A DNA stretch of 63,562 bases, counting the filler. It is 11 parts of 11 records of this genome, joined end to end, with 100 filler letters (N's around TTAATTAATTAA, not from the genome) between each part and the next. Parts side by side here need not be neighbours in the genome. Positions count along the whole stretch, not along the records: positions 29,622 to 41,256 come from SRR15195285_848; 10 more parts are not named here. One strand, given 5' to 3'. Every line of letters begins with the position of its first letter. Within the stretch, counting starts at the first letter, position 1. Below are positions 9,981-62,500 of the stretch, in pieces. Made by a program: the position numbers and the translations under genes. Below the pieces are notes generated by a model that worked only from the letters and a program-made list of their open reading frames with translations, searched no databases and was not told the origin of the DNA.

Positions 9981-10080
9981 NNNNNNNNNNNNNNNNNNNN
10001 NNNNNNNNNNNNNNNNNNNNNNNNTTAATTAATTAANNNNNNNNNNNNNNNNNNNNNNNNNNNNNNNNNNNNNNNNNNNN
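9981..10080. other. Artificial contig-joining spacer (N44-TTAATTAATTAA-N44). Identical spacers at 15300-15399, 19038-19137, 25301-25400, 29522-29621, 41257-41356, 44774-44873, 51801-51900, 56317-56416 and 59439-59538
   Basis: The same 100-nt structure occurs ten times, and TTAATTAATTAA gives stops in all six frames. Confidence 0.99.
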
Positions 10081-15299: not shown

Positions 15300-15485
15300 N
15301 NNNNNNNNNNNNNNNNNNNNNNNNNNNNNNNNNNNNNNNNNNNTTAATTAATTAANNNNNNNNNNNNNNNNNNNNNNNNNNNNNNNNNNNNNNNNNNNNC
15401 CCCCCCCGGCCGCCGCTTCAGAGCCCTTGCCGTTGAGACGCAGCAGCCCCGCTCAGGACTTTCGTTGCGGTGGAATGGCGCGCAG

Positions 15486-19037: not shown

Positions 19038-19263
19038 NNNNNNNNNNNNNNNNNNNNNNNNNNNNNNNNNNNNNNNNNNNNTTAATTAATTAANNNNNNN
19101 NNNNNNNNNNNNNNNNNNNNNNNNNNNNNNNNNNNNNCTTTTGTCTAATCTGGGGCCTCGACTCGGGCGTGGCACTCTGTACATATGTGGATGTGCGCGC
19201 GCGGCGGCGCGCGCGACGAAAATTCGCGTTGCGTATATGCGCACGCCGCGGTGCAGTGGGTCG

Positions 19264-25146: not shown

Positions 25147-25631
25147 TCCGCGCCGGCCGTCGTCGCGCTACGTATACGTGCCGCGCGCCGGCCACACGCC
25201 CACGGCGATCGTGGCCGCGACCCTGCCGGTGCCGCTCGCCGCGGGCCTGCTCGCTGTTAAAACACCGATGACTGAGGGTAGTACCAAGCACAGTGCCCAG
25301 NNNNNNNNNNNNNNNNNNNNNNNNNNNNNNNNNNNNNNNNNNNNTTAATTAATTAANNNNNNNNNNNNNNNNNNNNNNNNNNNNNNNNNNNNNNNNNNNN
25401 CGCGAGCTTGCCCGACCGCGTCACGACGGAACGGTGATGGGGCGTTCAGCCTACACCAGACCCCATAAACTAGCCTCACCGCGCACGCTACCGCAACGTA
25501 ATGCCGCGCTTGCGCTTGTTCCGCGATGAGGGACCACTGTGCCGTCAGCTCCCTGGCTGTGCTGGATTGGGAGACCTGAACTGGAACCCAATTATAGACG
25601 CCACAATTCTGCATGAGAGTCACATCAATGT

Positions 25632-29191: not shown

Positions 29192-29863
29192 ATCGAAGTA
29201 TCGAAGTATCGTTTTCGATCAGTAGATCGATGTGCTTGAAGTTTCTCTGAAAAGAAAGCGCCGCTGGCCAAGCAACAGCGCAAGCGACAACAGCTGTCGC
29301 TGATGTGTGGACAACTCATATAGAATCTATACATGCTGATGCTATAGCTTTGGTACTAGTAGAGTGCTTCTAGTGTCACGGACCGAACGCGTACCCTCAT
29401 CGACGTCCGAGAGGTAGATCATGAGCTGGCGCCACGCGACTCCATTTTAAAACGGAGTCGCGCGGGCGACCCCTCCGTCCTCGCGACCCCTTGTAGAAAT
29501 CCCGATATATCGGGGCAACCANNNNNNNNNNNNNNNNNNNNNNNNNNNNNNNNNNNNNNNNNNNNTTAATTAATTAANNNNNNNNNNNNNNNNNNNNNNN
29601 NNNNNNNNNNNNNNNNNNNNNAAATCAGACACCCTCTGAACCTTTCCTTTTCTGATTTCTCAGTGGTTTCTCCTAATACCGTACAAGTCTGGAAAATACA
29701 GACTTCGCAGATAGTTTTAATGCCAATACCCCGGCGCTTGATTTTGCATCAATGAGAATCGACCGGTGAACGAACCAGAAAAGTTGATCATTCGCGAAGA
29801 TTCTGCAACAGCAACGCGGCTGAGGAACGAACCTCCGTCATATCCGCCCGTCGCGCTACACCT

Positions 29864-29994
29864 ACAGCCTACAGTGTGCACGCAGTACCTCAGCCTACAG
29901 CTGTACAGTACATTACGCAGTATACACCGCTACAGTCCTCAGCCTACAGTGTGCACGCAGTACCGCAGCCTACAGTACAGTACGCAGTGTACAC
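29864..29994 (+). repeat. Two-copy imperfect tandem repeat (CAGCCTACAGTGTGCACGCAGTACC core, ~75-bp period) upstream of the kleisin gene
   Basis: The 25-bp core is identical at about 29865 and 29940, in TACAG-rich sequence. Confidence 0.75.
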
Positions 29995-30209
29995 GTCCCG
30001 CGCAACAACAGCTACTAGTAGAGGAGGGCGCTCGGGGAAGCAGGGGCATTGGAGGCGGGAGGGGCGAGAAGGGAGAGGGGCTGCAGCTGTGTGCGGGCGA
30101 GGCACGGTGCGGGAGCAGGCCGGGTAGCAGTCGCAATACGGTCGGGCCCGACGTTCCTGCTGCTGCCGCTCTCAGCAAACGAGCACTGCTGCTAGAGGGC
30201 GGCTAAAGA

Positions 30210-32878
30210 ATGTTCTTCTCCTACGAGTTGCTGACGAAGAACGGCAAGTATGCCAAGCTCTGGTGCGCCGCGACCTACCTGTGCACTGCGCTCCAGTCGC
30301 ACAATACCGTAGCTGCAGAGCTCACGCTCGCTGACGACTCGCGATGCGGTGCAGGGATGCTGCCAACCAGTCCATGCAACGTCGTGCTGGCGCATGGGTC
30401 TTTACAAGCAAGAAGGTGCGTGAAAGCAGGCCAGCGTCGGTGCTCAGGCGCGCTCTCGCTCTCGAGGTTTTGACACAGCGCCTGGCGTGCAGTCAAGCAA
30501 CAGAACGTTCATGGCCATCAACATCGAGGGAACCGTCCACGATCTGCTGACGGAGAAGCTCGCGCTACGACTCTCGGCAAAGCTCATGAGCGGCATTGTG
30601 CGGGTCTATGCCATGAAGGAGAATCAGTTGGGGAAGATCGCGCAAGACGCATCGAACGAGATGCGCAAGAAGATGAACTCTGCGGGGCGCAGCTCGACAA
30701 CGCTGCCGAAGGACCGCCAGGTACTTGATGCATTCGCGAAGATTTACTGCACTGGCCGATCCGTCGCGTCTCGCCGCCGCGCCGCTTGCACCGCACACAC
30801 CACCTCACGACGTAGCTATCTCGCTGTGTGACAGACCGCGGCGCACGACAAGATCACCATGTCCGAGACGGATGCGCTGCTTCTGGTGAGCTCACAGCCG
30901 GAAGATCTGGAGGACCTGGCGAACATCGATCTGGGCGAATGGACGGTGACGAACGAGCTCATCACGCGCGTTTCCATCTCGGAAGTGCAGAAGAACGCCG
31001 TCACGCTGCCGCTGCGAGATGACAGTATGGCCCCTGGTGACTTCGAGATCGGTCTCGGTGGCGTTGCCGACGACTTCGACCTGATGGACGGTGCGGTCGG
31101 CTTCGACGACGAGTTGCAAGAGTCCGGAGGCTTTCAGCTTGACGATTCGCAGAACCCGCAAAATGGCTCTGGAGAAGGCATGGCCGACTTCAGTCTGTGC
31201 GCACTGTACTGCGCCGCCCCGCTTCTTACTGCAGCAGACTCAGCTAATGTGCGGTCGTCCATTGATCATATGCCGATATCGTCGTGCAGAGATGGACTCA
31301 ACGACAGCGTGCACATGATGGACGAAAATGAGCTGGACAAAGAAAACCTGGACCCGGTCGCGGATTTGCCGGAGCAACCGACAGACTACAGCGTCACCGA
31401 CAGCGCTTTTATCCAAATCCGCACATCAACGTCGAACAAGAAACGCCGGCGCTCAAGGAAAGAGCCGTCGATAGATGAGGTCACGCAGATATCAAAGTGA
31501 GACAACGCTTCGCCTGCGGCCTCCCTCGCTGGTACAGCCCTGATCCAGCACACGTGTGCGTGCATTCGGATAGTGATGAAATTCGGCTCAACCTCACGTG
31601 CACAGACGGTGCGCTCATGCAACGTCGTTCGAACTGCACTGCACTGCACTGCACTGTGTCGCCGCTGCTGGAACCTTACTGCATCCGTGCATCGGATCAC
31701 GCTGCCAGATATTCTCGTGCCGTACCGCCGAGCTCCAACTGAGTCGTTCGCTCAGCTCAAGCAACGCAACGCCCTCGATGTGCGCAAATTCCTTTCAGCT
31801 GTCTCATCACCTGCTCACCCTGATAGCAGCTGCATCTGCTGCCCTATCTGCAGTTCCACGCGCCACTCTTCCCGCCGATGAACGAAGATATTGCCGAGCT
31901 GCGCAAGCACCTTGTTCCAACGACGCTGGAACGTGTGCGTATATTCTGCCACTACAAGTCCTTCACAGAGTTGGAACAGCAGAGACACAGAAACCATAAC
32001 TGCGGACACCCTGCTGGCCGCACACGTTCATCACAGACTAAGAGCGCGTGCCTTGTCGCCCTCGTGACAGGCCGATATCGAAGAGCCGGAACAGCCGCGT
32101 TCCCAAGAAGAACAGGACGAACTCGATCTCTTCGGATTCGATCAGTCGGCATCAAAAAAGCGCAAGAGCAGCATTGCAGGTCGCCTCAGCAGCGGTCCAA
32201 CGCCTGAGCATATAGAAGAGACTGCGTGAGGCTTCACGCTGGATTTCTGAATGCACTGCAGCAGATGTGCTTGATTGACTGATTGCCTTGCTCTTCTCGT
32301 CCTGCTATTGCGCAAACAGAGGCCTCAACGAGTCTGCAATCGATGCAAACGGTACGTCAAACTTCGGAGATGACTTCGGCGACTTTGGAGGTGACCATTT
32401 CTTCGATGAATCCATTCAGATTGGTCCTCAGTCGCCGACTCGAGATGATGTCAACGATCCAAACGGTGTATATACTGCGCAAGGGTCACCTGTATCGTCG
32501 TTTCCGTCTATGTACTCGGAGACATACCCCAGCCAGACAAGCCAATCACAGACGTATTCTCAGGTCTGTCACACGATCACACAACGGCTGTCTCTCGATG
32601 CTACGCTGTGCAGTCTAACTTGATCCGTACACGCTGTGCACCAGGGACAGTCGGCGCTGATGGTCGAAGTATCAAAGCAGGTCGAAGCGAACGGAGACTG
32701 CGGCGTAATCTTCACCGATCTGGTTGAAAAGATCGGAAACCGCAAACCTGCTCACCGCTTGGACGCTGCGCGGGTATTTCATGACGTTCTGTACATGGCC
32801 ACAAAAGGAAAGATGTCCGTCGATCAGAAGAAAGCGTACGGTCCGATCCGAGTGCACCTGCCCGCAGCAGCAGCTTGA
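30210..32878 (+). CDS. RAD21/REC8: Cohesin kleisin subunit, Rad21/Rec8 family, multi-exon
   Basis: N-terminal domain MFFSYELLTKNGKYAKLW|DAA...LALRLSAKLMSGIVRVYAMK, central KKRRR..IDEVTQI, and C-terminal winged helix RLDAARVFHDVLYMATKGKMSVDQKKAYGPIRV. Confidence 0.9.
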
Positions 32879-33170
32879 GTCGCGGCAACGCTTCCGTATG
32901 CAACTCATCGCTCCAAGCAGATAGTTAAGCATATTTACCGTTAGCTTCAGCAATGTACACGCTGTAGCTACGACTGCTTGTCGCCCTAAGCAATAAACCA
33001 CCAATCCTGATCCGCAGTGCTGCACTTGGTCAGCGAACTTTTCTGTGTAGCCTAGTGCCAGGTCTCGCAATGTTCCCTGCAGCAAGCACTACTGCTGTGA
33101 GCTCTCTGATGTAGACAACAGCTCAGTGCCAAGAAATTTGACTGAGCTGGTACAGCCGCCGCTTCTGCGG

Positions 33171-33821
33171 TCACGCCGCGGGCCATCCGGCCAGCGCTTT
33201 CCAGACTGCCGCTGCCAAGGATGCGATTGCGAACATCCCCAGAATCTTTTCGTGCGCATTCCAACTGGTGTGCTTGATTTGCTGCATCCTGTGGGCGATC
33301 AACCTGCTCTGAACGATCACCACGTCTGCCATCGAGTCAGGCATTCTCACCGGCCTGCCTCCCTGCGCATCCCACTCAAGGAGTGCCGCCGTGGTGCCCG
33401 TACCGCCAGCAAATGCTGCCCGCCGGTGCAGAACGAAATCCCTACCATCGTGACTCGTGGCCTTGGCCAGTAGCGCGGCGCCCGCAGCGCCAGGCGGGCG
33501 CACTGCGTGGCGTTCGACGTAGTGCACTAGACCTTCGGGCCACACGAACTCGCCATCCGTGAGAGCGATGCAACCCATATCCATCCACGGCCCGGTACGA
33601 CAGGAGCCATCGCCACTGCCACCAAACCGGCAGTTGGAGTAGCCCATCTCGTAAGACTCGATGTAACCGACGCGGAGGTAACTCGCGAGCTGCTCGGCGG
33701 CAGGCGACTGTGCCCATGCCTCATCAACATTGGGGTTCGGGTGCGGACGCTGGTCATCCGCTGGAGTCGATCCCGTCACTGCCCAGAAACCCACCTCACG
33801 CAGCTGAACGATAGAGCTCAT
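33171..33821 (-). CDS. Conserved hypothetical protein (bacterial-type TDG..WPEGL.HYV..H motif) with a C-terminal transmembrane helix
   Basis: VGFW..., YLRVG..YEMGYSNCRF..MGCIALTDGEFVWPEGLVHYVERHAVRPP, and a hydrophobic tail ILGMFAIASLAAAVW. The ORF stays open upstream to 34034, so the start is uncertain. Confidence 0.7.
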   Translation of the reverse strand: MSSIVQLREVGFWAVTGSTPADDQRPHPNPNVDEAWAQSPAAEQLASYLRVGYIESYEMGYSNCRFGGSGDGSCRTGPWMDMGCIALTDGEFVWPEGLVHYVERHAVRPPGAAGAALLAKATSHDGRDFVLHRRAAFAGGTGTTAALLEWDAQGGRPVRMPDSMADVVIVQSRLIAHRMQQIKHTSWNAHEKILGMFAIASLAAAVWKALAGWPAA

Positions 33822-34598
33822 ATCTCCAGCCCAGTCGGCGCCGATCACGTCCAGCCCGATCGATGTTCGGATGTGGCAGTGCAGTTCCCCTGCGAAGAGC
33901 CGCGCAGTGAATGAGTGGCAGGCCTGAAGTTTGACGACCTGCGATTTAACCGCAGCGCCGCTGACTGCTGAGGGCAGTTCCGCCGACGGCCACAGCGCCA
34001 CACAGCACTCAGCACAGCGCTCAGCTGCGTGCACCAGTGAGCCTTCAGGATGCCGTGACTCGGAAGCTCCGTCGCGAGCTACGTGGCGATGCTGCGGCGC
34101 CGGCCAGCCCGGCGCGTATACAAGGATCGATCCTACAGAGTATACTACCGCGCGCGCCGGTACACATTTCTATAGCTAGCAGGTTACACAATTTTCCGGG
34201 ATATACCACGAAAATTTGCCAGGCCCACTATGGGCCTATGGAGGGCATCCCTCCCGATTTTCGCTTTACCCAGAACAGCTGGACGCTAGCGTAGAGGGGA
34301 CCCGAGGCGAGGTCGCCACGCAGAAAACACCACCCAGCACAACCCCACGCACGTGGCTCGTCTGTTACAGCGCTGCTGGAACCCGTGTTTCGCAACCAGA
34401 AGGAGGTGTTCCTGGCAGCCGTGGCAGCGTGGAACAACTCGAAGGGGCGGCGCGAGGGCGTTGCGTACGGTGTCCGCCACCACACTCACAAAAAGGCCCC
34501 AGAGCACCGACGCCAGCGCATGGAACGTGACCAGCAAGTGGCGCGAGAAATCCGCGTGTGTGAACGACGGAAAACATGCAATACAATTCTTGTTTAGC

Positions 34599-37500
34599 CT
34601 ACTCTGGTGTCCAGTGGCCCATCACATTCGGATCGCTGGACTTCATCTCGATGACGAATGCAAACACCCACGGCTCGAGCTTGCGGAGGCGCGAGCCGAC
34701 AGGTAGTTGTGGCTTGTAACCACCAATCACCAATTCGGTTCCCACAGAAACTGGCGTGCTGGATCGCGGTTGAATCTTGAGCCGATTTGCGAAGACTCCA
34801 TTTAGTGACCCGTGGTCCGTCACGGTGAAAGTGTTGCTTTCTGGCAAGTACGTCAGCGTAGCGTGTTTGCGAGAGACCTGGCTCTTAGGGTCAGGCAGTT
34901 GCAATGTGGTTATACTCTCATGTTCTCTTGTGGACGATGTCGCGGCTGGCATCCCCGGCGATTTCGCTACCGACATAGACTCGAACACAAACACAAACGG
35001 CCCAGAATCAGCCTCGCTCAACTGCTTCAGTTGTTTCGTTGTTTTCGGGTCTCCAAGCGACACCGTATTGCCGTCATGCAAGCACCGTGGCAACATCAGT
35101 GCCCGCTGCGCAGCGTTCGTCGGCCCAACTCGCAGCCCGTCGACGAACACGCCGTTGGTCGAGACGTCACGAAGCTTGAATGAGCCTGTCTGTTCGTCGT
35201 AGAAGATGGTGAGATGGTGCCTCGACAGCATACTGTGCTGAATGACCAGCCCAGGCGTGCCTGCAGGCAAGACCTTGCCGATTCGGAACGACCACCCGGG
35301 CGTCATCTTGCAGTCTATAGCTTCGAGTTTTAGTTCATTCGCACCCTTGAGCACACGAAGGCGGAAGGACGATGCGGGAGGTTTCGCGGTAGCGCGACCA
35401 ATTTGTAAGTTCCGATGATTCTCAGTGGTTGGTCCAGGCAGGGCAATGGTGCTGCATGGAAGAGGAGGGCCATTTGTCTGCCTGAGCAAGTACATCGTCG
35501 GCTCTCTTGCCTGCTCCTGTGCGGATATTGCCGCGTTCGCTTCTAGATTAGCTTTAGCCACGGCTGCAGCAGCCTTTTCGCGTGCGGCACTGATAGCCGC
35601 GGCCTTTGACTCCATGGCTGTGTGTGCAGACTGCGATGCTTCCAACGCAGCGTCGGCTGCAGCGACAGAGAACGCAGCATCATGTGAGCCCGGCGGTTTG
35701 AGCATCGCACTTGCGGCTGTTGTCAATGCAATGTTTGGACAAGAATGAGTGTCTTGTAGTGAGCCATCTGCTATGGCAAGAATTGGCCGGCCAACACGCG
35801 GCTCGCCTTCCTCGTGCTTCAGGGAACTGGATTGTTCCCAGCCATCACCAGGATCCGTAGCAGTTGACTCGGCATTTTGTGCAGGTTTATGATTGTCACG
35901 ATCAGCTGAGGCACCAGCGTCGTCTGTGATCACGTCGTCGTCTGCATGGTCTTCATCATCGTCGTCGCTATCCTCTGCCATGCCATCCTCAACAATAAAC
36001 TCGCGATCCTCGTCGTTCATCTCTTGCTCCGCTCCGTCGTCTTGCTCGTTCTCTGTTGCGCTGAATTCACCTTCCCCCTCATCAGACGACCCGAAACCAT
36101 CTCCACCTGCATTCTCTCCATCATCCTCTTCCTCTTCCATAGCCTCAGCAACGTCTGGCGCTATCGCCAGTATGCTGTTCTTCTGCTCAATGTACTCGGT
36201 CCAGCACTCGTGCACTTCCACGTTTTCCTGTGGCTCCCATGTGTCTTCGTCCTCTCCATAGCCTTCCCATCGCACCTTGTACTCTGTTACACCACTGGCA
36301 TTGGTACGCTCGCCCATAATTTTTTCAACCTCGTACTCAGTCTCGCCGGTCCAGTGAAGCTCCTTTTCACAAGTGGATATCTCAGACTCGCTGGAAGAGG
36401 CCACCAGAAACTGTCTGTACAATGTTGTGGCGTCCCGGGAGATTTGAGACCCTTCTTCGTTGTACCTTTCCGCATTAGATTTCAGCAGCTCTACATCACA
36501 CTTCATCTTGTCAAGAGAATAAGTAGGCTCATCAAGTCGATCTCTGATCAGAGAGAGATCAATGTAGTCTACGATCACGTCATCATATCCGGGGGCTTCA
36601 TCTTCAGAGGGATGCTCCATGAAGGCCTCCGATAGTACTCTAGATCCGAGCTTGTAGCTGACGAGGTGATCCCAAATGGCACTCAAGTCATTGACAGAAG
36701 ATTTTCGGCATGTTGTAGCCGAGACAAACAGCTGCGCACCGACTGCACGTCTTGCCATCCCAGTTGCTTCTTCTTCCTCGTCTTCCTCGTCTTCACTCTC
36801 CTGATGATCGTTTTCCTTATCCTCTTCGTCTTGGCTCTGCTCGTCAGCATCATGGTCGTCTCCAGTGGCCTCAGAAGTACTGACTGGCGCTGACTGGTCC
36901 TGAGACGACTGGGACAGGCGATTGAGCACCGTAGTCTCAGCCGTGAACGCAGCTTCGTCATCAACATCATCCTCAACATCCTCCCACATGCCGCAGTCGT
37001 CAAGAACTTCGTCTCCATAATACTCAGCAAAGTCTTCGTCATTGGACGCCGCGGCAGCTTCGGGTACGGGTTCAACACAGTCGTCAGACTGGTACTCATC
37101 GTCTGAAGGTGGTGCAGTCACTTGCTCCTCGCGTATGGCATATGAGCGCGTTGACGTATGGGCTGTCGCAGATGTTCCTTTCGGTGATTTGCAAGAGTTC
37201 ACTGTCAATCTACTGCGTTTTCGGATAGCACCACCGCCAACCCTTGTCTTGGATTGTCGTGACTGTGTGAACGAATCGAGGCAGATCGGCTCCGGGTTCG
37301 GGTTGTCAGTTGCTGGCTGGACTGCACTGTCCTTTTTCTCCATCTCCTTTATAGCAATGCGAAGTTTCTCAATGTGCTCTTCTTTCATCACTCGAAGCCC
37401 TACAACGCGCTCACCATCGTCGCAGCTGATTCGAACAATTTTTGCCTCTTCCCTGCCGCGCGCCTTTGGCAGACACGCCCAAATTCCCAATAAGCTGCCT

Positions 37501-40500
37501 GTGATGACAAAAATTTTCTTTTTTCTCCTTCCGTAGTCACAATCCCCTTCAACATGGCAATTGTGGTGAGAGCACTTTGTGTCATACTCTGTATACTCCC
37601 GAGTCCACTGTCTTTGATACGTATCATAGCTAGAGCTCTTCTCACCGTTGAAATCTGTGCGTGTACTTTTCTGCTTTATGAGACGGTGTTGTACCAGTTT
37701 CCTGAGTGGGGCTGTCAGTTGATCGGTCGACATTTCTAAAATTTTCGCGAGTTCGGTCTTCCAGATGCCTTTGCAGGATTCTGTCTGTGGTGTCTGATAG
37801 TCTCGCACTACTTGCAATACCCGTCGCTCCACAGGGTCCGTCAGCTCGCTCGGGCTCACATACCACTCTTCTGTAGGCCGTACATCGAACTGATGATCCA
37901 CTTTGAATACATTCACAACCTTATTCTTGTCCTGCAAATTGTCCTTGTGCAGGTCTGAGGATGAGATGCCTGCTGCAGGCTTGTGCATGCCGTACCACAT
38001 GCTTCTGCCTGTAACCTCGTTGCCGCCAGCCCGTGCAATCACAAGGCTGCACTGACGGATCGATGACCCCCGTGGATGCCCGAACGGGGGGTTTTTGCTT
38101 CGCAAGAACATCACGTTGCGATTGTCACTCTTCGCTTTTTGGTATCGTTGGAGCGCAGTCTCCCAGCTGATCCCACGGTCCATCAGCACCGTCACCAAGT
38201 TAACTGTGCCCTTCGAGATCGGGTCCGTCCATAGTACCTCTGTTGATGCTACGCTCATACTCTCGCCTGTAACATCTGTAATTCCTTCACTGTATTGATT
38301 GTTTTGCTTTGCAACGACGATCACACGGTCCAGCGTGTCGAGCAAGTGCCGAAAGATGTTCTTCTGAAGCTCCAGTTGCACGCCAAACAGGCGGTTCAGG
38401 AATGTGTTGATCTTCATCTTGGATTTCGCGCCAATCACGCCAGCGGCTGTCAGTTCAACTATGGCCTCCGTCGCGAACTCTTCTTGTGAGTATTCGTCGG
38501 TGATGAATTCAGACGCAATAGGAAAACGTGAGGGACGGTCACTTGCCCAAGCCTGGATGTTCGCTAGCATGTGATTGAGAGCATCATGGCCCCATTTTGT
38601 GTCGAGCACAAAGTCTGACATATCTTGGGCACCGCCCGCGCGGCGGTCACCTTGTGTGAGCGCACCGAGTTGCTCAAGGCGAGAGGCAACAGCACTGGCA
38701 AATCGCCACTCCCCGCCGATGGTGGTAATCAAGAGCTTGAAGATAGGAGACGACTTCTGGTTTGAGCGATGGGAGCGACCAAGTTGTTGCACGGCTTTAT
38801 CCGCGCTCCAAGGCAACTCGAGCGTGATATGCAGCCGCCGCTTCTGGTTTTTTACGCGGCGGTCCGCGTGAAGGGAAATTCCAGTAGACGCCGCATCCGA
38901 GATAATAGCAACAAGCTTTCTTCCACTTTGAAAATTCTTGCGCTCGGTGATGTTGATGGAGTCATCGATCTCTCCGCCCCTGCTTTTGGCTTTGAAACGC
39001 TTCTCGTGCACCAACATGGTTTGCCCATTGCTGCCGCGCCCGGCCCTTGGTCGGCGCACTGTCCGTGTGCTGCGACCAGTCATCTCGGCGACCTTTTCCG
39101 GCCCGCCCAGCATATCAATGATCGCATCGAGGGGATTTGGGGGCCACTCGAGGGTGTCGATCTCAGCGAGTATTTCCTTCTGTACCTTGCGCAGATGCGG
39201 AATCGCCGGCGCGCCGCATTCAAACTCGTTTCCGATCTTGTAGATGTCCTTCATCACATGCTGGATGAAGAGCTTCGAAGTCGACAAAAAGTCGCATCCA
39301 TCGAATCCATGTTCTGCGATATGTGCATCTGTTCTGGCTTCGCCGGTGGACTGTAGACCTATCACACAACACTGATCATTTGCGAGCGCTTCCTTGGCGA
39401 GACGAACGACCGCTGGCACTTTCGCGCCCAAGCACAATTGGTTGAAAAATCTCTGATGCGTTCCCCAGAACGTTCCCATTACCATCTGGAGGCTCTTCTG
39501 CTCTGTGGGAGTGAGAGAGACGCGTATGGATATCTGGTCCTTCATGATCTCAAACTCCTTCTTCATCCGAGCCCACAATCTGGCACAGTGGTTGTAAAAC
39601 GCTCGATATTCAGGTGAGAGGTCTTCGTTGACGACGCTGAATTCGGCGCCGCGGTAGCTAAGAGTACGAGCGATGAACATGCCGCGACCCTTCATGTCCA
39701 TGGCCACCATTTCCATTCCGCCAGTGCCGCGGCTGTTGATCTGCCTGATAAAGTCTGCGGCGTCATTGAAAGACGTTCCAGTCCCCCACAGGCCGAGGCG
39801 ATCCATGTACGACATATGAGAGAGCTCCGATGCGCCGGTGGCCGAAACGTAGACGACACGCGCACGCGGGAGCCGCCGCTGCACCTCTGCGACATGGCGT
39901 GCAGTCCGCGACGACTTCTCTTCCTTGCCTACCACTAGGTTTTTTGCCTAACGACAAGGACGCGCAAAACATCAGCAAGGGCTCAGAGCAGATCGGTGAA
40001 GACAAAAAAGGGGAGCAACGAGGCACATAGACACCTTATGGCACTCGTCGAAGACAAGGCATCCGTCGAAGTTCTTCCCACACCACTCGGCAAGCTGGTC
40101 GATTCGTTTCATGCGCGAGCCGGAGATGAGACATGAGTACGTGGAAAACAACACGCCGCTGTCTGTGCCATTCTTTTTGTTCAGCAGCGGCTTCAACTCC
40201 GTGTACGGCATGTCCGGGAGATTGATGATCGGTACTTTGCTAGCGCCGATGTCGGCGAAGTCGCGCGATGCATCGGCCGCAAGGTCGGCGCTCGCGCTGA
40301 ACCATACGCTCTTCTTGCCTGTGCGCGTGTACACGCAATCAAGGGCGATGAGAAATTGGTGGCCGACACACGCAGCGCGGCGGCAGGACGACTCACGGCC
40401 GCGACGGAAGTTCTCGTAAATGATGCCAGAGATCTGGCGGCCTTTGCCGATGCCTGCGCCATCGCCGAGCAGGAAGCCCGCGCGCTCGTTGCGGCCGTTC

Positions 40501-41054
40501 GGCAGCGTGATGTGGTGGCGCATCGACGCGTACACGATTGACTCCAGCTGCAGGCCGGAAATGAGGCCCTTCTCAATCAGCTCCCGCGGCAGCCCAAGAC
40601 GGTAGGCCGGGTCAGGCGGCGGTACCGCGCTCATCGAGGAGGTTTCGACGGTCTGATCAGGATGCCGGCGCCCAAGTTTGACCTTCGAGGGCTCGTAGTC
40701 GGCAAATGTATCGTACTCCTCGCCCTGCCCGACTCCCTCATCCTCCTGTGCTGCGGCGAGCTCTTCCTCTTTCTGCCGCGCCTGCTTCTCCGCATCCGCC
40801 TGCCGCTGCTTCTGTGCTGCCGTCTGGACCGCCTGCGCGGCGGCCGCCGCCTCGAGCTGCGCAAGCCCCCATTTGGAGACAGACTGCGGCAGGTGTGACA
40901 TGACACCTTCTCCCGCGCCGAGCAACCGCCGGTACAGCTGCGCTCTTCCCGCGTTTGGCGCTGGGCCTGAGGCAAGGGCGAAAGCGAGATGCTCCTGCTC
41001 CTGGCTTCCGGCTCCGACGCGTCGACGCTCTGCCCGGTCGCTCCACCCAGACAC
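34599..41054 (-). CDS. SBNO: Strawberry notch (SBNO)-family SF2 helicase-like protein with C-terminal winged-helix, bromodomain, chromodomain and two FHA domains
   Basis: HPDQTVETSSMSAVPPP, LQLESIVYA, GFLLGDGAGIGKGR, FSTYSCL, FDECHK|AKNL, YVSATGA, VIGLQSTGEA, GGPEKVAEMTGR and ISDAASTGISLHADRRVKNQKRRLHITLELPWSADKAVQQLGRSHRSNQ. There are at least two introns near the 5' end. The start is uncertain (ATG at 40901 or further upstream). Confidence 0.93.
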
Positions 41055-41356
41055 TAGGTCTAAGTCCTCACGTAGCTGGACGAGCCCGCTGGTGGGCAGC
41101 GCGCTGGCCGGCGTGGCTGAGCGCGGTGCACCGTTGGACCCTGTTGTTCCTTCCTGGCAGTTCCTCCTCCTCTAGAGACTGAGCGCTAAGTCCCCTGCAA
41201 TACCCGTGCTGGCCAGCTGCTACTGACCTCCTCCTCCTGCTGCTGCTCCTGCTGCTNNNNNNNNNNNNNNNNNNNNNNNNNNNNNNNNNNNNNNNNNNNN
41301 TTAATTAATTAANNNNNNNNNNNNNNNNNNNNNNNNNNNNNNNNNNNNNNNNNNNN

Positions 41357-44505: not shown

Positions 44506-45346
44506 GCGACGAAGAGGAAGAGAGAGGACGGGTTTGAATGTAGGTGTGTTCTGCCCTAAGGACACCGGGGCTAGGGCAAATCAGTGTAGTAGGGTAGAAT
44601 GAATGCAGTCAGTTGTACATTTGTGGTGGTGGTTCGTCCTCGATGGGCTGGAAAGGTGAGCTAAGCCCTGAGGATAGAGAAGGGTATCGGTCATTTAGTA
44701 TGCAAGAATGACACAGGCACCGTACAGCGGGCCGACACTAGATTACTGCGACTTTCGGTTGCTGTGGCCGGAANNNNNNNNNNNNNNNNNNNNNNNNNNN
44801 NNNNNNNNNNNNNNNNNTTAATTAATTAANNNNNNNNNNNNNNNNNNNNNNNNNNNNNNNNNNNNNNNNNNNNCCCTGTTTTTTGCACACTTTTTTGCGC
44901 GCGGTTGAATTTAATTTCATGCGCGGCGCGGACCTGTATTTCAGACGGTCTCACAATACTTATAGTACGAGCTGTACTTACAACGCGTCCCCGCCAAATT
45001 GCTCGCGAATTGCGTATGCTCGGGCCTTGCTTCGATGCTTCCTTCGTCGATTCGCCCTTCGTGTGCCGCATTGCGTGCGCCGGCCGCCGGCGATGCTCAT
45101 GTTCACCCGACGGCTCGCTTCCACAGCGCAGCACCTTGGGTGTGGGCCCACGCGCGCCGCCTTCGTTGCTGCCTCTGCAGGTGTGGCCAGCCAGCAGCAT
45201 GGATGGTGATGGCGGGATCCCTGCCATGCACGCAAGCAAGGCATCTGTGTATGTGTGCACATGCCCAGATTGGCTCATTTGCATCCATTTCTTGCCGATA
45301 CCCAGGGGATGGCGATGGAGGCAGCGGCGGCAACCCTCGGGACGAG

Positions 45347-51775: not shown

Positions 51776-52085
51776 GCGCCGCTCAACGCCGACTGCGACG
51801 NNNNNNNNNNNNNNNNNNNNNNNNNNNNNNNNNNNNNNNNNNNNTTAATTAATTAANNNNNNNNNNNNNNNNNNNNNNNNNNNNNNNNNNNNNNNNNNNN
51901 CCGCGCCACGGCGCGCTTTTTGCAAAATGCTGAGTCGGCAATTTCAACAAATTTGCGATGCATGGTGGGCCGCGCATGCATTCGATGCATCGGCGCGCTT
52001 TAGCGTAGGTGTGCGCGCGGTCGTCTGCGCGGTGAGCGCGCCGCGCGCGGCGAGGTCGCCGCGCGGCGCCGGTATCTGCAAGGCA

Positions 52086-56027: not shown

Positions 56028-56416
56028 GTCGTACGCTACTGCACCGGGAGCGGCCGTACCGGTGTACACGCGCGTACCGTGCGCCATTATATATCGCCGG
56101 CGCGCGGTCCTATCGCGTACGTGCAATCGATGAAACTTCGCATTTACGCTCAATTTAGAAAATGGTTCGCTATGGAATTGAATACGAGATTGTAGCACTA
56201 TATTCGGGAACCTCGAGCAGGCAGCCCGCGATCACCCGACCGTTCGGCCACGACCTCATATACGATACTGTACTAGATCTAGTATACCCATAGCCCATAT
56301 ATGATCGGTGCCAATGNNNNNNNNNNNNNNNNNNNNNNNNNNNNNNNNNNNNNNNNNNNNTTAATTAATTAANNNNNNNNNNNNNNNNNNNNNNNNNNNN
56401 NNNNNNNNNNNNNNNN

Positions 56417-59249: not shown

Positions 59250-59538
59250 GTCCAACAGCGACGCGCCCCCCCCCCCGCCGTCCACCACGCTCGACCCGCC
59301 GCGATCGATGCTACGAGCTACGTGCCTGTCGTCCCGCCGCGATGACCGCGGGCATATCTAGCTAGGATACGCATGCAGTAAATTCTGTTGTTTCTCCGAA
59401 ACGCACCTGGGTGATTGGCGCAGTTTGGATCCGATGGANNNNNNNNNNNNNNNNNNNNNNNNNNNNNNNNNNNNNNNNNNNNTTAATTAATTAANNNNNN
59501 NNNNNNNNNNNNNNNNNNNNNNNNNNNNNNNNNNNNNN

Positions 59539-62500
59539 ACTGAGCTGGTGGCTGGACAACCTGATAGAGCAAGTATATCAGGTGCAAAAATACGCCAGTC
59601 TTCCCGATCTGTGGGCGCCCGACTAGTGCGAACCGACTCGGATTGTCTCGCCAGATTGCAGGATCATCTGGCTTGTAGTCTGCATTTCCTTCCCCTGCAT
59701 CCCAATTTGTCCGATATGTCTCTGTGTCAAAGTCATCCAGTGGATGATAGTACACAAGATTTGTCTCTCCTCGTCGCAACTCGCTGTGGCCGGGTGGCTG
59801 CCGAATATCTTTTTCCGGTACCTTGACCATCTTTTTAACCCTATCAGGTTGTCTTCTCAGAACTGGGTTTCCGGTGGACTTTCGCCCCTGTTTAAATGTT
59901 TTGATCATCACAGAACTAACGAGCATATACGGCATCTGCTTACGCTCGTAGTCATCTGGCTCCCCATCATTCTCCGTGCGACAGGTAGCACAGTTGTTTG
60001 GGTGCTTGTCAACCCACCGGCACGCACGACCAAGGTCTTGTTCAGCAGGTGCTCGAATGATGGCTTTCGTTCCTGACCCATAGTACTTGAGACGGAGGTC
60101 GTAGTACTTCATGCTTCGTGGAAATGTGTCACCCATCTTCCCTTTCTGGCACAAAATCAGAATGCAAGGTAGACCTTCTAGCTCCTCGTAGGCATCCACG
60201 CAGAGCTCCTGGATCGTTTGAGGTTGTGTTAAGTGAGCGTGTGGGTCTTCAATGCGGATGGCCCAGCTAGCCAGCCGTTTTTTGAGAACATCGGACTTGA
60301 TGAGGTCCTTTAGGCTCGTATTGCGCTGGTCTGTGTCAAGAATTGTTGCGAACGAGTCTTGAAGACCCAGTTCCTTTTGTGCTTTCAGAATGCCAGCGTG
60401 CAAGACTGCTCCGTTTGGTTTACTATCAACCCGAATGAGGATCATCGATCCCTTACCAGACGGAGCAGGTTTAAGTAAATCAGCGATCATGTTGTCAGTG
60501 AATTTTGACGTCCACTTCTCAATTTTTGTTTTGGTATCCGCAGATAGCTTCCCGAATGCATTTCGATGAATAATTGCATGTTTGATGAGTGCAGACTTGT
60601 ATTGTTGCAGCATGGTCTCGACACGCTTATCGGCATCAGATTTCCCGTCGGCATCCCGCCAAAGCCGGTCGAAATCATCGTCGCTGGTCATCCTGCCTTC
60701 ACCCCACTGCCCAATGTGATCCTTATTGCAATAGTCCGCGATCCCGTAATACCTTTTCGACGCAGAGTGCTGTGCCGAGCTCATTGTGCAAACATTTCGC
60801 GCAGGAATTTGCGAGTTTCTCGTAAAGATGCAATATGGCGTAGCGCTGACGAACAAGGTAAGTACGTTGACATTTGCTGGCTCGCGCAGCTCTTGACCAT
60901 TCACAATCTTGCTGAACTCACCCGTTGCCGTCATGTCGTAGTGTGCCTCGTCCTGAATGATCAGAAATAGAGTATCTGGATTGTTTTGAATCTCATTTTG
61001 TAGTGCCTTTACCTTGGCAGCCTGATCTTCGCCACCAGCGGATGGGCGGATTATGAATCTGCTGTCGCTGGTGGCTTTTCCACTCGCATCTTTCAAGTCT
61101 CGCTGGACATCTGCGAAGAAGCTATCGTCTCCAATATACCTGCTGTACTCTGCGAGAAACGGTGCAAGTCGAACTACAGTCTGCTTTGCCAAAGAATTTG
61201 GCTTCGGCAGGAAGATGTAAAAGGCCAACCTGGAGAACGCACGCCCGCGCTGCTGTATTGCATCCTGTATGTGAACGACCATCTTCGCAGCCAACTCCTT
61301 TGCGACATCCTGCTGTGTACCCTTGACATTTCCTCCGTCAGGCACACTTTCTATTTCGATTGATGCCCGAGGTACACCTTTAGGCTGCACGGCCGTATCC
61401 ACAATCGGGCATGTCCTAAGAAGGTTTCGAACCTCTTCTAGATCTAGTACACCTGCATCGTCGTCAACCGGTGACTCACTATCCAGCTCGCTCGATTCGT
61501 CCTCACCTTCGTCACTGCTCTCGTCCTCGCTGTCTTCCTCAATCTTGTTCGGCGTCAACTTGCGCTTCTTTCTTACAGCAACCTGATCCACTGCCTGCTC
61601 TTTCTGCAAGTCGAGGTCTAGAGTCAAACCGTCTTTATCATCGTCTGTCGATACATACCCATGCAGATCCGTTTCCTCTGTGTGGGCAGCAATTCCTGGT
61701 CCTGCGGGCGTAGCTTCCCTGGCCACACCCATGGCTTCCCGCGCCTCCTGTTCATTATCCTCCTCCTCCGACTCCGACTCCGAGTCGGTGCCTCGGTCCA
61801 TTCCGGCATAGCTGATACGGTCCAAAGTACGTAGCCGACTGCTAGCACGGCCCTCACTATCTGCGGCCGTTGGGGCGCGAGCTTGGACGGGTACCTCGCT
61901 TGTTGGCTCCAGCTCCAACTTCCTGCGCTTGTGTTGATCATCATTAGAGTCTACGCCTGGTCCACCGACAGCGTCTTTCCTCTGGCGCTTGCGCTCCTGA
62001 GATTGATTCCTTGTGCTCTTGCTGCTCTTGTTCCTGTTCTCCTTCTCCTTCTCCTTCTTCTTCTTCTTCTTCTTCAATCGCCGTGGCCGCTCTGCGTCAG
62101 TACTCCTTGTCGAGCCGTCATTGTGTACAGCCTGCGGAGGCGCAACTGCATCCGTTCCTGTCAGCCCGACGACAGCTGCTGCGGTGGGCGTATGCCCTGA
62201 GTCCATTTTAAGGTCGCCGTCCATAATACTGACTTTTTTTTCCGTGGTCCCGTCGTCCTGAGGCGAGAGAGTGCATTGCGGTGACTCAGCGACTTGATAG
62301 CAACTTTGGCCAGTGGGATTTCATGGGTGAGCGCACGAATCGAATGTCAATCGTCTCGCCGTCCGATTGGACTACCTCGCCATGATACCATTTGTAACCC
62401 CCCGGCTCATCAATCTCATACTTCAGTTGCACTCTTTGACCCACTGTCACGGTGGCAGCGTCACGGGCAGGTGCCGCGCCAACAGAGTCCTCAGTCACTG

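Follow-up and report, generated by a model that had tools for sequence, protein, structure and literature searches.

The window, a stretch of 63,562 nucleotides (nt) of DNA made of 11 contigs chained by ten N44-TTAATTAATTAA-N44 linkers (six-frame stop spacers), carries on its contig 29622-41256, minus strand, a Strawberry-notch (SBNO) gene in which the ATPase core is followed in one frame by a bromodomain, a chromodomain, and two FHA domains, with a predicted winged-helix insert inside the SBNO alpha/beta domain. We consider it likely that this locus is authentic and belongs to the nuclear genome of a marine eukaryote not yet in culture, and that it encodes an SBNO ATPase that has gained a C-terminal chromatin-targeting tail. 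The fusion is a fresh combination within a recurring theme of SBNO cores joined to chromatin readers, not a novel kind of system, and in the collections searched it is restricted to one small clade of uncultured marine protists.

Gene Model and ATPase Core

The initial annotation had described a single uninterrupted open reading frame (ORF) joining an SBNO helicase core to the tail. A stop-free minus-strand frame of 1782 codons runs from 39947 down to the stop at 34599-34601, and no N and no stop interrupts 34599-39947, so the frame is open throughout as claimed; however, it is not the whole gene, as the Walker A half of the core lies in two upstream exons. The 1778-amino acid (aa) translation of exon 3 is called P0001 here, and residue numbers refer to it. 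The gene and its core are made up as follows.

34599-40901, minus strand: whole gene model, ~2045 aa, three exons (DNA reading, frames, homology)
40397-40901, minus strand: exon 1, from the ATG at 40901
40319-40396, minus strand: intron 1, 78 nt, GTGAGT...CAG
40035-40318, minus strand: exon 2
39948-40034, minus strand: intron 2, 87 nt, GT..AG, with in-frame stops inside
34599-39947, minus strand: exon 3, the last exon, stop included
39588-40667, minus strand: AAA_34, first ATPase lobe, across the three exons (Pfam, motifs in DNA, P0172 alignment)
~40434-40466, minus strand: Walker A stretch GDGAGIGKGRQ (DNA reading, P0172 alignment)
40035-40049, minus strand: DECH(K) box (DNA reading, P0172 alignment)
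38274-39137, minus strand: Helicase_C_4 (PF13871), second ATPase lobe, P0001 267-554 (Pfam)
37326-38213, minus strand: SBNO C-terminal alpha/beta domain, split by the winged-helix insert, P0001 ~575-870 (alignment A2, AlphaFold2)

When read through, exons 1 and 2 were 43% identical to the animal SBNO protein P0172 (BLASTP), with a 26-residue gap in the alignment precisely at intron 1 and an end at FDECHK, where exon 2 closes. Because of this gap and end, and of the AAA_34 match of 210 bits on exons 1-2, the full gene is predicted to encode ~2045 aa with an intact Walker A and DECH box. A further 143 bits of AAA_34 fell on the exon 3 part (P0001 4-116), and Helicase_C_4 matched at 298.5 bits (E 7.3e-89) over the whole profile (1-271 of 271). 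The SBNO helicase core reported earlier is thereby confirmed by both Pfam matches and both motifs, and the predicted ATPase core, comprising Walker A, DECH box, Helicase_C_4, and alpha/beta domain, is complete and conserved. The host is a marine eukaryote with short GT-AG introns.

The alpha/beta domain of P0001 scored 13.5-14.3 bits with PF25373, under the cut-off of 24, a shortfall attributed to the insert that splits the domain. Over its full length it aligned with relatives above that cut-off (P0170, 33.4 bits; P0007, 26.8 bits; P0029, 24.1 bits; P0169 also) in A2, an alignment of P0001 and 12 relatives (13 rows) over this domain. Near-invariant Cys, His, and Cys residues (C-x-H ... C-x-Y-G-x-R; ~37500-37580, minus strand, P0001 ~788-803) were seen in the second half of the domain in the 13 sequences of A2 and may form a metal-binding site.

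Predicted Histone-Mark Readers and Tandem FHA Module of the Tail

Behind the alpha/beta domain, exon 3 encodes the following features.

36918-37070, minus strand: acidic linker motif ...YGDE..D.CGMWEDVE....DEAAFTAETT, P0001 956-1006 (by eye)
36396-36695, minus strand: bromodomain of SWI/SNF (PBRM1, SMARCA2/4) type, P0001 1081-1180 (Pfam, PDB sequence search)
36171-36341, minus strand: chromodomain of HP1/CDY class, P0001 1199-1255 (Pfam, PDB search)
35061-35495, minus strand: N-terminal beta extension (YLLRQTNGPP...) and FHA1, P0001 1481-1625 (Pfam, AlphaFold2, Foldseek, A1)
34641-34919, minus strand: FHA2 and C-terminal extension, P0001 1673-1765 (Pfam, A1, A3)

The bromodomain (P0001 1098-1170 in Pfam) scored 47.4 bits in the whole protein and 51.4 bits as a separate piece (cut-off 21.7). 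Among PDB sequences, it matched PBRM1 with 136 bits summed over the PBRM1 bromodomains and SMARCA2 with E 2.7e-12, and it aligned end to end with the second bromodomain (BD2) of PBRM1 and with SMARCA2 (HMMER). The ZA-loop Tyr and BC-loop Asn of bromodomains are acetyl-lysine contacts; here, P-G-Y supplies the Tyr and Y-N-E the Asn, and these matched the P-D/E-Y and Y/F-N-E/L columns of PBRM1 BD2 and SMARCA2. The bromodomain with an acetyl-lysine-binding YN had been placed at P0001 1083-1176, in agreement with the Pfam match and with these aligned residues.

Similarly, the chromodomain (P0001 1201-1248) scored 48.5 bits in the whole protein and 52.4 bits as a separate piece (cut-off 25.1), and the PDB search returned CDYL (E 4.1e-12), then CDYL2, MPP8, and HP1. 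The HP1 aromatic cage consists of Y24, W45, and Y48. The aromatic positions Y (EYEVEKI), W (RWEGY), and Y (GY) of P0001 are identical to those of CDYL and CDYL2, so the chromodomain with an intact aromatic cage, previously called at P0001 1200-1248, agreed with Pfam in position and with the aligned Y/W/Y in substance. The chromodomain begins 18 residues past the bromodomain and is followed by a long acidic linker to the FHA pair. By eye, the pocket residues of both domains are kept in P0003, P0160, P0162, and the fragment P0006. From conserved pocket residues only, we infer that the two domains may bind acetyl-lysine and methyl-lysine. The PDB sequence search also returned 'Cake' designed-propeller matches, which were rejected as sums of insignificant repeats with per-stretch E >100.

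The predicted FHA domains at the end of the tail were likewise recovered, as two copies above the Pfam cut-off with FHA folds in the model. The two stretches together scored 76.3 bits in the whole protein and 81.9 bits as a separate piece (cut-off 20.7), the best stretch being 1677-1738. An AlphaFold2 model of P0001 1475-1778, built from 14 sequences, had a mean pLDDT of 81.8, and Foldseek matched it to RNF8 (2pie, E 4.8e-06) among 87 matches at E<=0.001; the best 32 of the 87 were mostly isolated FHA domains (RNF8, kanadaptin, SLMAP), the rest being longer FHA-containing chains (Rad53, CHK2). A conserved R-Q-T-N-G-P-P strand region precedes FHA1, and the extension GG.KP.LP.GSRLR.L...VFAF behind FHA2 is conserved. 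The scores and matching coordinates place the bromodomain, chromodomain, and FHA assignments well beyond chance.

Ahead of these domains, the acidic motif (G-x-W-E-E/D ... A/D-A/T-F-T-x-x-T-T) was recognized by eye also in P0003, P0007, P0029, and P0170 and was begun in P0005; it follows the SBNO core in every clade member examined, different tails included. Its identity between P0001 and P0003 was 63%, vs. 19% for the next linker. Pfam gave no family for it; a conserved role in docking is possible.

Winged-Helix Insert

An Rpc34-like winged helix after the SBNO core had also been proposed, at P0001 703-758. The corresponding features are the following.

37611-37916, minus strand: lineage-specific insert of ~100 residues, P0001 674-775 (alignment A2)
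~37647-37856, minus strand: winged helix proper, P0001 ~694-763 (AlphaFold2, VIA-align)

The insert was present in 4 of the 13 A2 rows (P0001, P0003, P0005, and the fragment P0050), and the rows without it include P0007, P0029, and P0170. An AlphaFold2 model of P0001 575-880 had a mean pLDDT of 85.2 and showed helices at model residues 127-138, 152-158, and 163-175 plus a hairpin. In a VIA-align search of 48,161 PDB representatives, all 50 matches listed fell on model residues 105-200 with Z 6.2-7.5, and these were mostly winged helices (RPA32C, Stn1, MarR/ArsR, Z-alpha, TFE, RPC62); the best Foldseek match was the RPC39 winged helix 2yu3. A winged-helix fold of the insert is thus supported by the model together with the VIA-align and Foldseek matches.

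The fold that was proposed therefore stands, but its position does not, as the winged helix sits inside the alpha/beta domain (A2) and not after the core. As to a specific kinship with RPC39/Rpc34, unrelated winged helices tie at Z 6.2-7.5, and the Pfam match is to B-block_TFIIIC, not to an Rpc34 family. Unlike the bromodomain, chromodomain, and FHA matches, which pass their thresholds, this match stayed below the cut-off of 22 in whole P0001 (19.3 bits) and exceeded it only in a 241-aa piece (25.7 bits).

PMC5512222 describes a family-typical winged helix-turn-helix (wHTH) at the C-terminus of Sno-type ATPases, SnoC-wHTH, so a wHTH near the core is unsurprising in itself. The winged helix of P0001 is a lineage-specific insert and need not be the SnoC-wHTH of that account.

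Orthologues and Distribution of the Architecture

P0001 has an orthologue cluster, that of P0003, with six members from other metagenome contigs of up to 11990 nt; three of them are 1732-1735 aa long. P0003 has the same Pfam set in one frame and is identical to P0001 at 725 of 946 aligned residues (77%, over the core). The identity between the two was 90% in Helicase_C_4, 82% in FHA2, 70% in FHA1, 61% in the bromodomain, 57% in the winged-helix insert, and 53% in the chromodomain, vs. 19% in the acidic linker before the bromodomain, 28% between bromodomain and chromodomain, and 41% in the long linker after the chromodomain. Domains are kept and linkers are not, which is the pattern of purifying selection on a multi-domain protein.

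Relatives of the tail (P0001 581-1778) were searched with a full HMMER pass over 1.84 billion representatives. This returned one SBNO protein with the insert, P0005, which ends at a probable intron; the bromodomain-chromodomain fragment P0006, 59% identical; FHA fragments; and P0007 (1243 aa), which has the SBNO alpha/beta domain, a PWWP domain, and two FHA domains without the ATPase core. The remainder were ordinary bromodomain, chromodomain, or FHA proteins. The motifs R/C-Q-T/V-N-G-P and GSRLR...VFAF are common to P0001, P0007, and P0170, and small separate tandem FHA proteins exist as well (e.g., P0049, 490 aa). A 270-aa metagenome protein, P0008, begins like P0006 in its chromodomain region and then passes straight into FHA2 with a duplicated QVSR stretch, its reading frame continuing beyond the point where the others stop. 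A faulty assembly, a deletion variant, or a skipped segment might explain it.

Among SBNO homologues of 977-3112 aa, 3687 were found at E 1e-20, and architectures were obtained from the 120 matches listed. Within these, only P0001 and P0003 combined bromodomain, chromodomain, and FHA. Other protist proteins carried other modules: two FHA domains in P0170 (1460 aa), ankyrin repeats in P0169, and two PHD, SWIB, Tudor, and zf-CW without FHA in P0203 (2997 aa, 51 member sequences). The plant row P0263 had PF13871, PF13872, PF25373, and PHD, and the animal rows among the 120 had no bromodomain, chromodomain, FHA, PWWP, or PHD. The earlier statement that animal SBNO proteins lack such readers and plant FGT1 (FORGETTER1) has a PHD finger is borne out by these animal rows and the plant row. 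Before its tandem FHA, P0170 has a stretch W-I-C-N-L-C-T-F-E-N ... C-G-M-C that resembles a RanBP2-type zinc finger by eye and gave no Pfam match at E<=0.001.

None of the proteins with a bromodomain-chromodomain-FHA tail had an NCBI or UniRef source, and no publication combining an SBNO core with bromodomain, chromodomain, and FHA was found in a literature search that covered papers without their supplements. The architecture had been presented as one of no described protein; no paper with it was found, and the combination was found only in P0001 and its orthologue cluster, but other protist SBNO proteins carry reader arrays too, and those of P0203 and P0007 make reader-decorated SBNO proteins a recurring theme.

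A quick, unrooted tree of 32 cores (989 columns, with SH-aLRT support values; P0007, having no core, was left out) joined P0001, P0003, and P0005 at 100, these with P0029 and P0170 at 97, and these in turn with P0169 and P0171 at 99, the join of P0169 and P0171 being one between long branches. The clade of P0001 stood apart from the animal and plant clades, and green algae grouped with plants.

The ESM Atlas gave generic SBNO clusters only, lacking structures and with scores of 0.77-0.79, below the trust level. A tandem-FHA profile search among longer proteins gave P0001, P0003, and one Frankia ABC-transporter FHA protein only; it missed P0007 and P0170, which were crowded out, and so says little on the spread of the module. 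A metagenome DNA scan with A3, an alignment narrower than A1 whose pattern amounted to a generic FHA motif, gave 80 loci of 34-52% identity, many with soil-type record names, and no close relative of the tail.

Continuity of the Locus in Other Assemblies and RNA Libraries

Logan contigs of four public runs were mapped over 34300-41256. An X1 contig of 7240 nt spans 34300-40594 with 15 differences and 0 gaps, and an X2 contig of 3664 nt, from another study, spans 34300-37937 with 8 differences and 0 gaps and so reaches the alpha/beta domain from the FHA end; 37923-38711 is covered by a further X2 contig. Part of the stretch occurs in 19 of the 23 runs listed; these belong to 14 studies and are almost all of marine or seawater origin. 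Core and tail are thus bridged by X1 and X2 contigs, and the orthologues repeat the architecture, which makes an assembly chimera unlikely.

RNA-library contigs cover 27 of 30 bins in X10 and 16 of 30 bins in X18, and one X10 RNA contig (35966-36501) takes in the chromodomain together with the last part of the bromodomain.

At 40793-40906 (minus strand), which takes in an N-terminal low-complexity region and the bases ahead of the ATG, strain variants in the metagenome contigs differ in length with the frame kept. In X1, 12 nt stand in place of 51. Net 3-nt insertions at 40903-40906, directly upstream of the proposed ATG, were seen in X1 and X10 contigs. In view of these insertions, the gene may really start, or have another exon, further 5', toward the contig end at 41256.

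Proposed Function and Alternative Explanations

SBNO proteins have roles in signalling through Notch and EGFR, in inflammation and neurodevelopment, and in the memory of heat stress in plants. In the mechanism that we propose for P0001, the bromodomain and chromodomain would dock the ATPase on nucleosomes carrying acetyl-lysine and methyl-lysine, with H3 tails as the probable target because of the nearest solved relatives of the two domains. The tandem FHA module would bind a partner, via phospho-threonine at least for FHA1, and the winged helix would give an extra DNA or protein contact beside the motor. The core might then act like FGT1, either holding down nucleosome occupancy or working alongside remodelers where the marks are. 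In evolution, the tandem FHA tail would be the older part, common to relatives without bromodomain and chromodomain, and the cassette between core and FHA would have been swapped among lineages (bromodomain plus chromodomain vs. PWWP).

As a tentative extension, to which we give well under an even chance, SBNO-family motors could be mark-guided remodelers in general: the polypeptide of the P0001 lineage would integrate acetyl-lysine, methyl-lysine, and phospho-threonine signals and so choose the sites of motor action, and animal and plant SBNO proteins would get their reading in trans from Brahma/PBAF-type partners. If true, this would provide a testable mechanism for SBNO1/2 and FGT1. The fused SWI/SNF-type bromodomain fits the link between FGT1 and BRM as a Rosetta-stone hint, nothing stronger. 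Apart from this extension, fusions that occur in nature are inexpensive clues to function. The conserved fusion of an SBNO motor with a SWI/SNF-type bromodomain, an HP1/CDY-type chromodomain, and an FHA pair argues for a motor that works on modified nucleosomes directly and has a tie to kinase signalling, and the swapping of cassettes on one motor family (bromodomain plus chromodomain, PWWP, PHD/Tudor/zf-CW) indicates modular targeting. In protists, chromatin proteins commonly gain domains in single lineages; as the finding is also confined to uncultured marine protists, it should be of moderate surprise to a specialist.

Several points weigh against the explanation favored here or against parts of its case. 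To our knowledge, ATPase or remodelling activity has been biochemically shown for no SBNO member. The order in which FHA and readers were gained is drawn from three tail types and an unrooted quick tree that does not contain P0007. The VIA-align Z values of the winged helix are all <8, possibly a mere common arrangement, and its best Foldseek E is only 0.084. X1 is possibly the window's own source sample, so its contig is not certainly independent. In the RNA libraries, X10 record 16 (39915-40343) retains all of intron 2, X18 record 23 (40324-40530) retains 73 of the 78 nt of intron 1, and no spliced joint was seen among the X10 and X18 contigs over the gene. The intron-retaining contigs may come from DNA carry-over or pre-mRNA; as they are unspliced, the expression of the gene and its predicted introns are deduced from homology and the GT-AG ends. 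The last point concerns the phospho-threonine contacts. The canonical set, known from Rad53 FHA1, is Gly-Arg, Ser-x-x-His, and Asn-Gly. FHA1 keeps S-R-H-H and S-T-N-G and has Gly-Lys in P0001 and P0003, vs. Gly-Arg in P0007, P0170, P0049, and P0081 (alignment A1); in all 14 A1 rows, Gly-Arg is missing from FHA2, which makes phospho-threonine reading by FHA2 doubtful, and its Ser and His of S-R-x-H and its N-G are invariant in A1 and A3 (S-R-K-H and L-N-G in P0001). The full canonical set is therefore absent from both copies while the fold is that of FHA. Of the three marks that the protein could read according to the initial annotation, acetyl-lysine and methyl-lysine would fit the bromodomain and chromodomain pockets, but phospho-threonine is less secure.

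These FHA residues lead to the alternative that survives best, namely that the gene is real and some of its readers are degenerate, with the FHA pair and possibly the winged helix being phospho-independent modules for protein-protein binding or intramolecular regulation, such as auto-inhibition of the ATPase, so that the protein would read only part of the three marks, or none. We regard this as possible but improbable on balance. Besides the missing Gly-Arg of FHA2 and the Gly-Lys of FHA1, it would account for the conserved, non-canonical C-terminal extension on FHA2 and for the fact that the structures matching the winged helix most closely include the protein-binding RPA32C and Stn1; basic surfaces could be masked by the long acidic linkers. 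However, the bromodomain and chromodomain pockets are intact and kept among orthologues, the Ser/His and Asn-Gly of FHA2 are invariant, and a Lys in place of Arg could still contact phosphate.

A chimera or read-through of two neighboring genes, in which misassembly linked a plain SBNO gene to another one for bromodomain, chromodomain, and FHA, or the two only look joined owing to an overlooked intron or terminator, is very improbable and already close to refuted. The window is a chain of short contigs, which indicates a fragmented, probably metagenome- or single-cell-derived assembly; a single transcript was not seen in the RNA-library contigs, and tandem FHA also occurs in small separate proteins such as P0049. 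Against this stand the open frame and the bridging X1 and X2 contigs described above, the three orthologous ORFs of 1732-1735 aa that run from Helicase_C_4 through FHA in one frame, and the distant P0007 and P0170, which also fuse SBNO parts to an FHA tail.

Finally, a decaying or untranslated locus, in which the stop-containing 39948-40034 is kept and only a Walker-A-less fragment or nothing is made, would explain why the RNA-library contigs keep both predicted introns without spliced joints, but it has very little chance of being correct, as both gaps are GT..AG and lie exactly at the animal SBNO alignment gap and the DECHK end, AAA_34 reaches its 210 bits across exons 1-2, a 1782-codon frame would not survive in a dead gene, the neighboring Rad21/Rec8 gene is also in pieces, and RNA libraries can contain DNA.

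Neighboring Gene and Other Contigs of the Window

Since the window is made of separate contigs, the neighborhood of the SBNO gene can be read only inside 29622-41256. Its neighbor there and the linkers of the window are as follows.

30207-32875, plus strand: upstream neighbor, Rad21/Rec8 kleisin (cohesin subunit), in several ORF pieces (Pfam)
9981-10080, 15300-15399, 19038-19137, 25301-25400, 29522-29621, 41257-41356, 44774-44873, 51801-51900, 56317-56416, 59439-59538: linkers

Rad21_Rec8_N matched at 30424-30828 with 42.6 bits, with a weak start at 30207-30470, and the C-terminal region of Rad21_Rec8 at 32624-32875 with 34.6 bits. That the kleisin gene is split into pieces suggests that introns are normal in this genome and fits a nuclear genome with introns.

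Among ten long ORFs on the other contigs, the Pfam matches were to AAA, EF-hand, hydrolase, glucosidase II beta, and GREB1-type helicase families, which are not taxonomically diagnostic. A long ORF at 59540-62320 (minus strand) matched the circularly permuted SF2 (superfamily 2) helicase of GREB1 proteins (PF20692, 247 bits).

Comparison With Known Systems

One of the closest described parallels is FGT1 of Arabidopsis, the plant Strawberry-notch orthologue, which like P0001 has a DExD/H-like and Helicase C-like core and a chromatin reader in one polypeptide. The reader of FGT1 is one PHD finger, whereas the P0001 gene has no PHD and instead a bromodomain, a chromodomain, two FHA domains, and the winged-helix insert. 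According to PMC5040591, FGT1 binds H3, sits at promoter-proximal regions, interacts with the BRM (SWI/SNF) and ISWI remodelers, and lowers nucleosome occupancy.

The animal proteins Sno, SBNO1, SBNO2, and LET-765 have the same AAA_34, Helicase_C_4, and alpha/beta domain, with 39-44% identity in the best local alignments among the rows listed, but neither the winged-helix insert nor the FHA tail of P0001 occurs in them. The protist proteins P0007, P0170, P0169, and P0203 resemble P0001 in carrying accessory modules after the SBNO core. P0007 and P0170 have the tandem FHA tail and its flanking motifs as in P0001; however, P0007 has a PWWP where P0001 has bromodomain and chromodomain and lacks the winged-helix insert, and P0170, unlike P0001, has no Pfam-detected reader.

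Sno is grouped in the SWI2/SNF2 clade in PMC3417536 and PMC5512222. SMARCA2/4/Brahma, with a C-terminal bromodomain, and the CHD proteins, with chromodomains, are like P0001 in that a superfamily 2 motor of the SWI2/SNF2 clade carries histone-mark readers. We know of no FHA pair on a motor of this clade. The motor of P0001 belongs to the Sno branch, whereas those of SMARCA2/4 and CHD belong to the Snf2 and CHD families. Its bromodomain is closest to those of PBRM1 and SMARCA2/4, and its chromodomain is single and HP1/CDY-like, in contrast to the double chromodomain of CHD proteins, the match to CHD1 being weak (E 2.4e-4).

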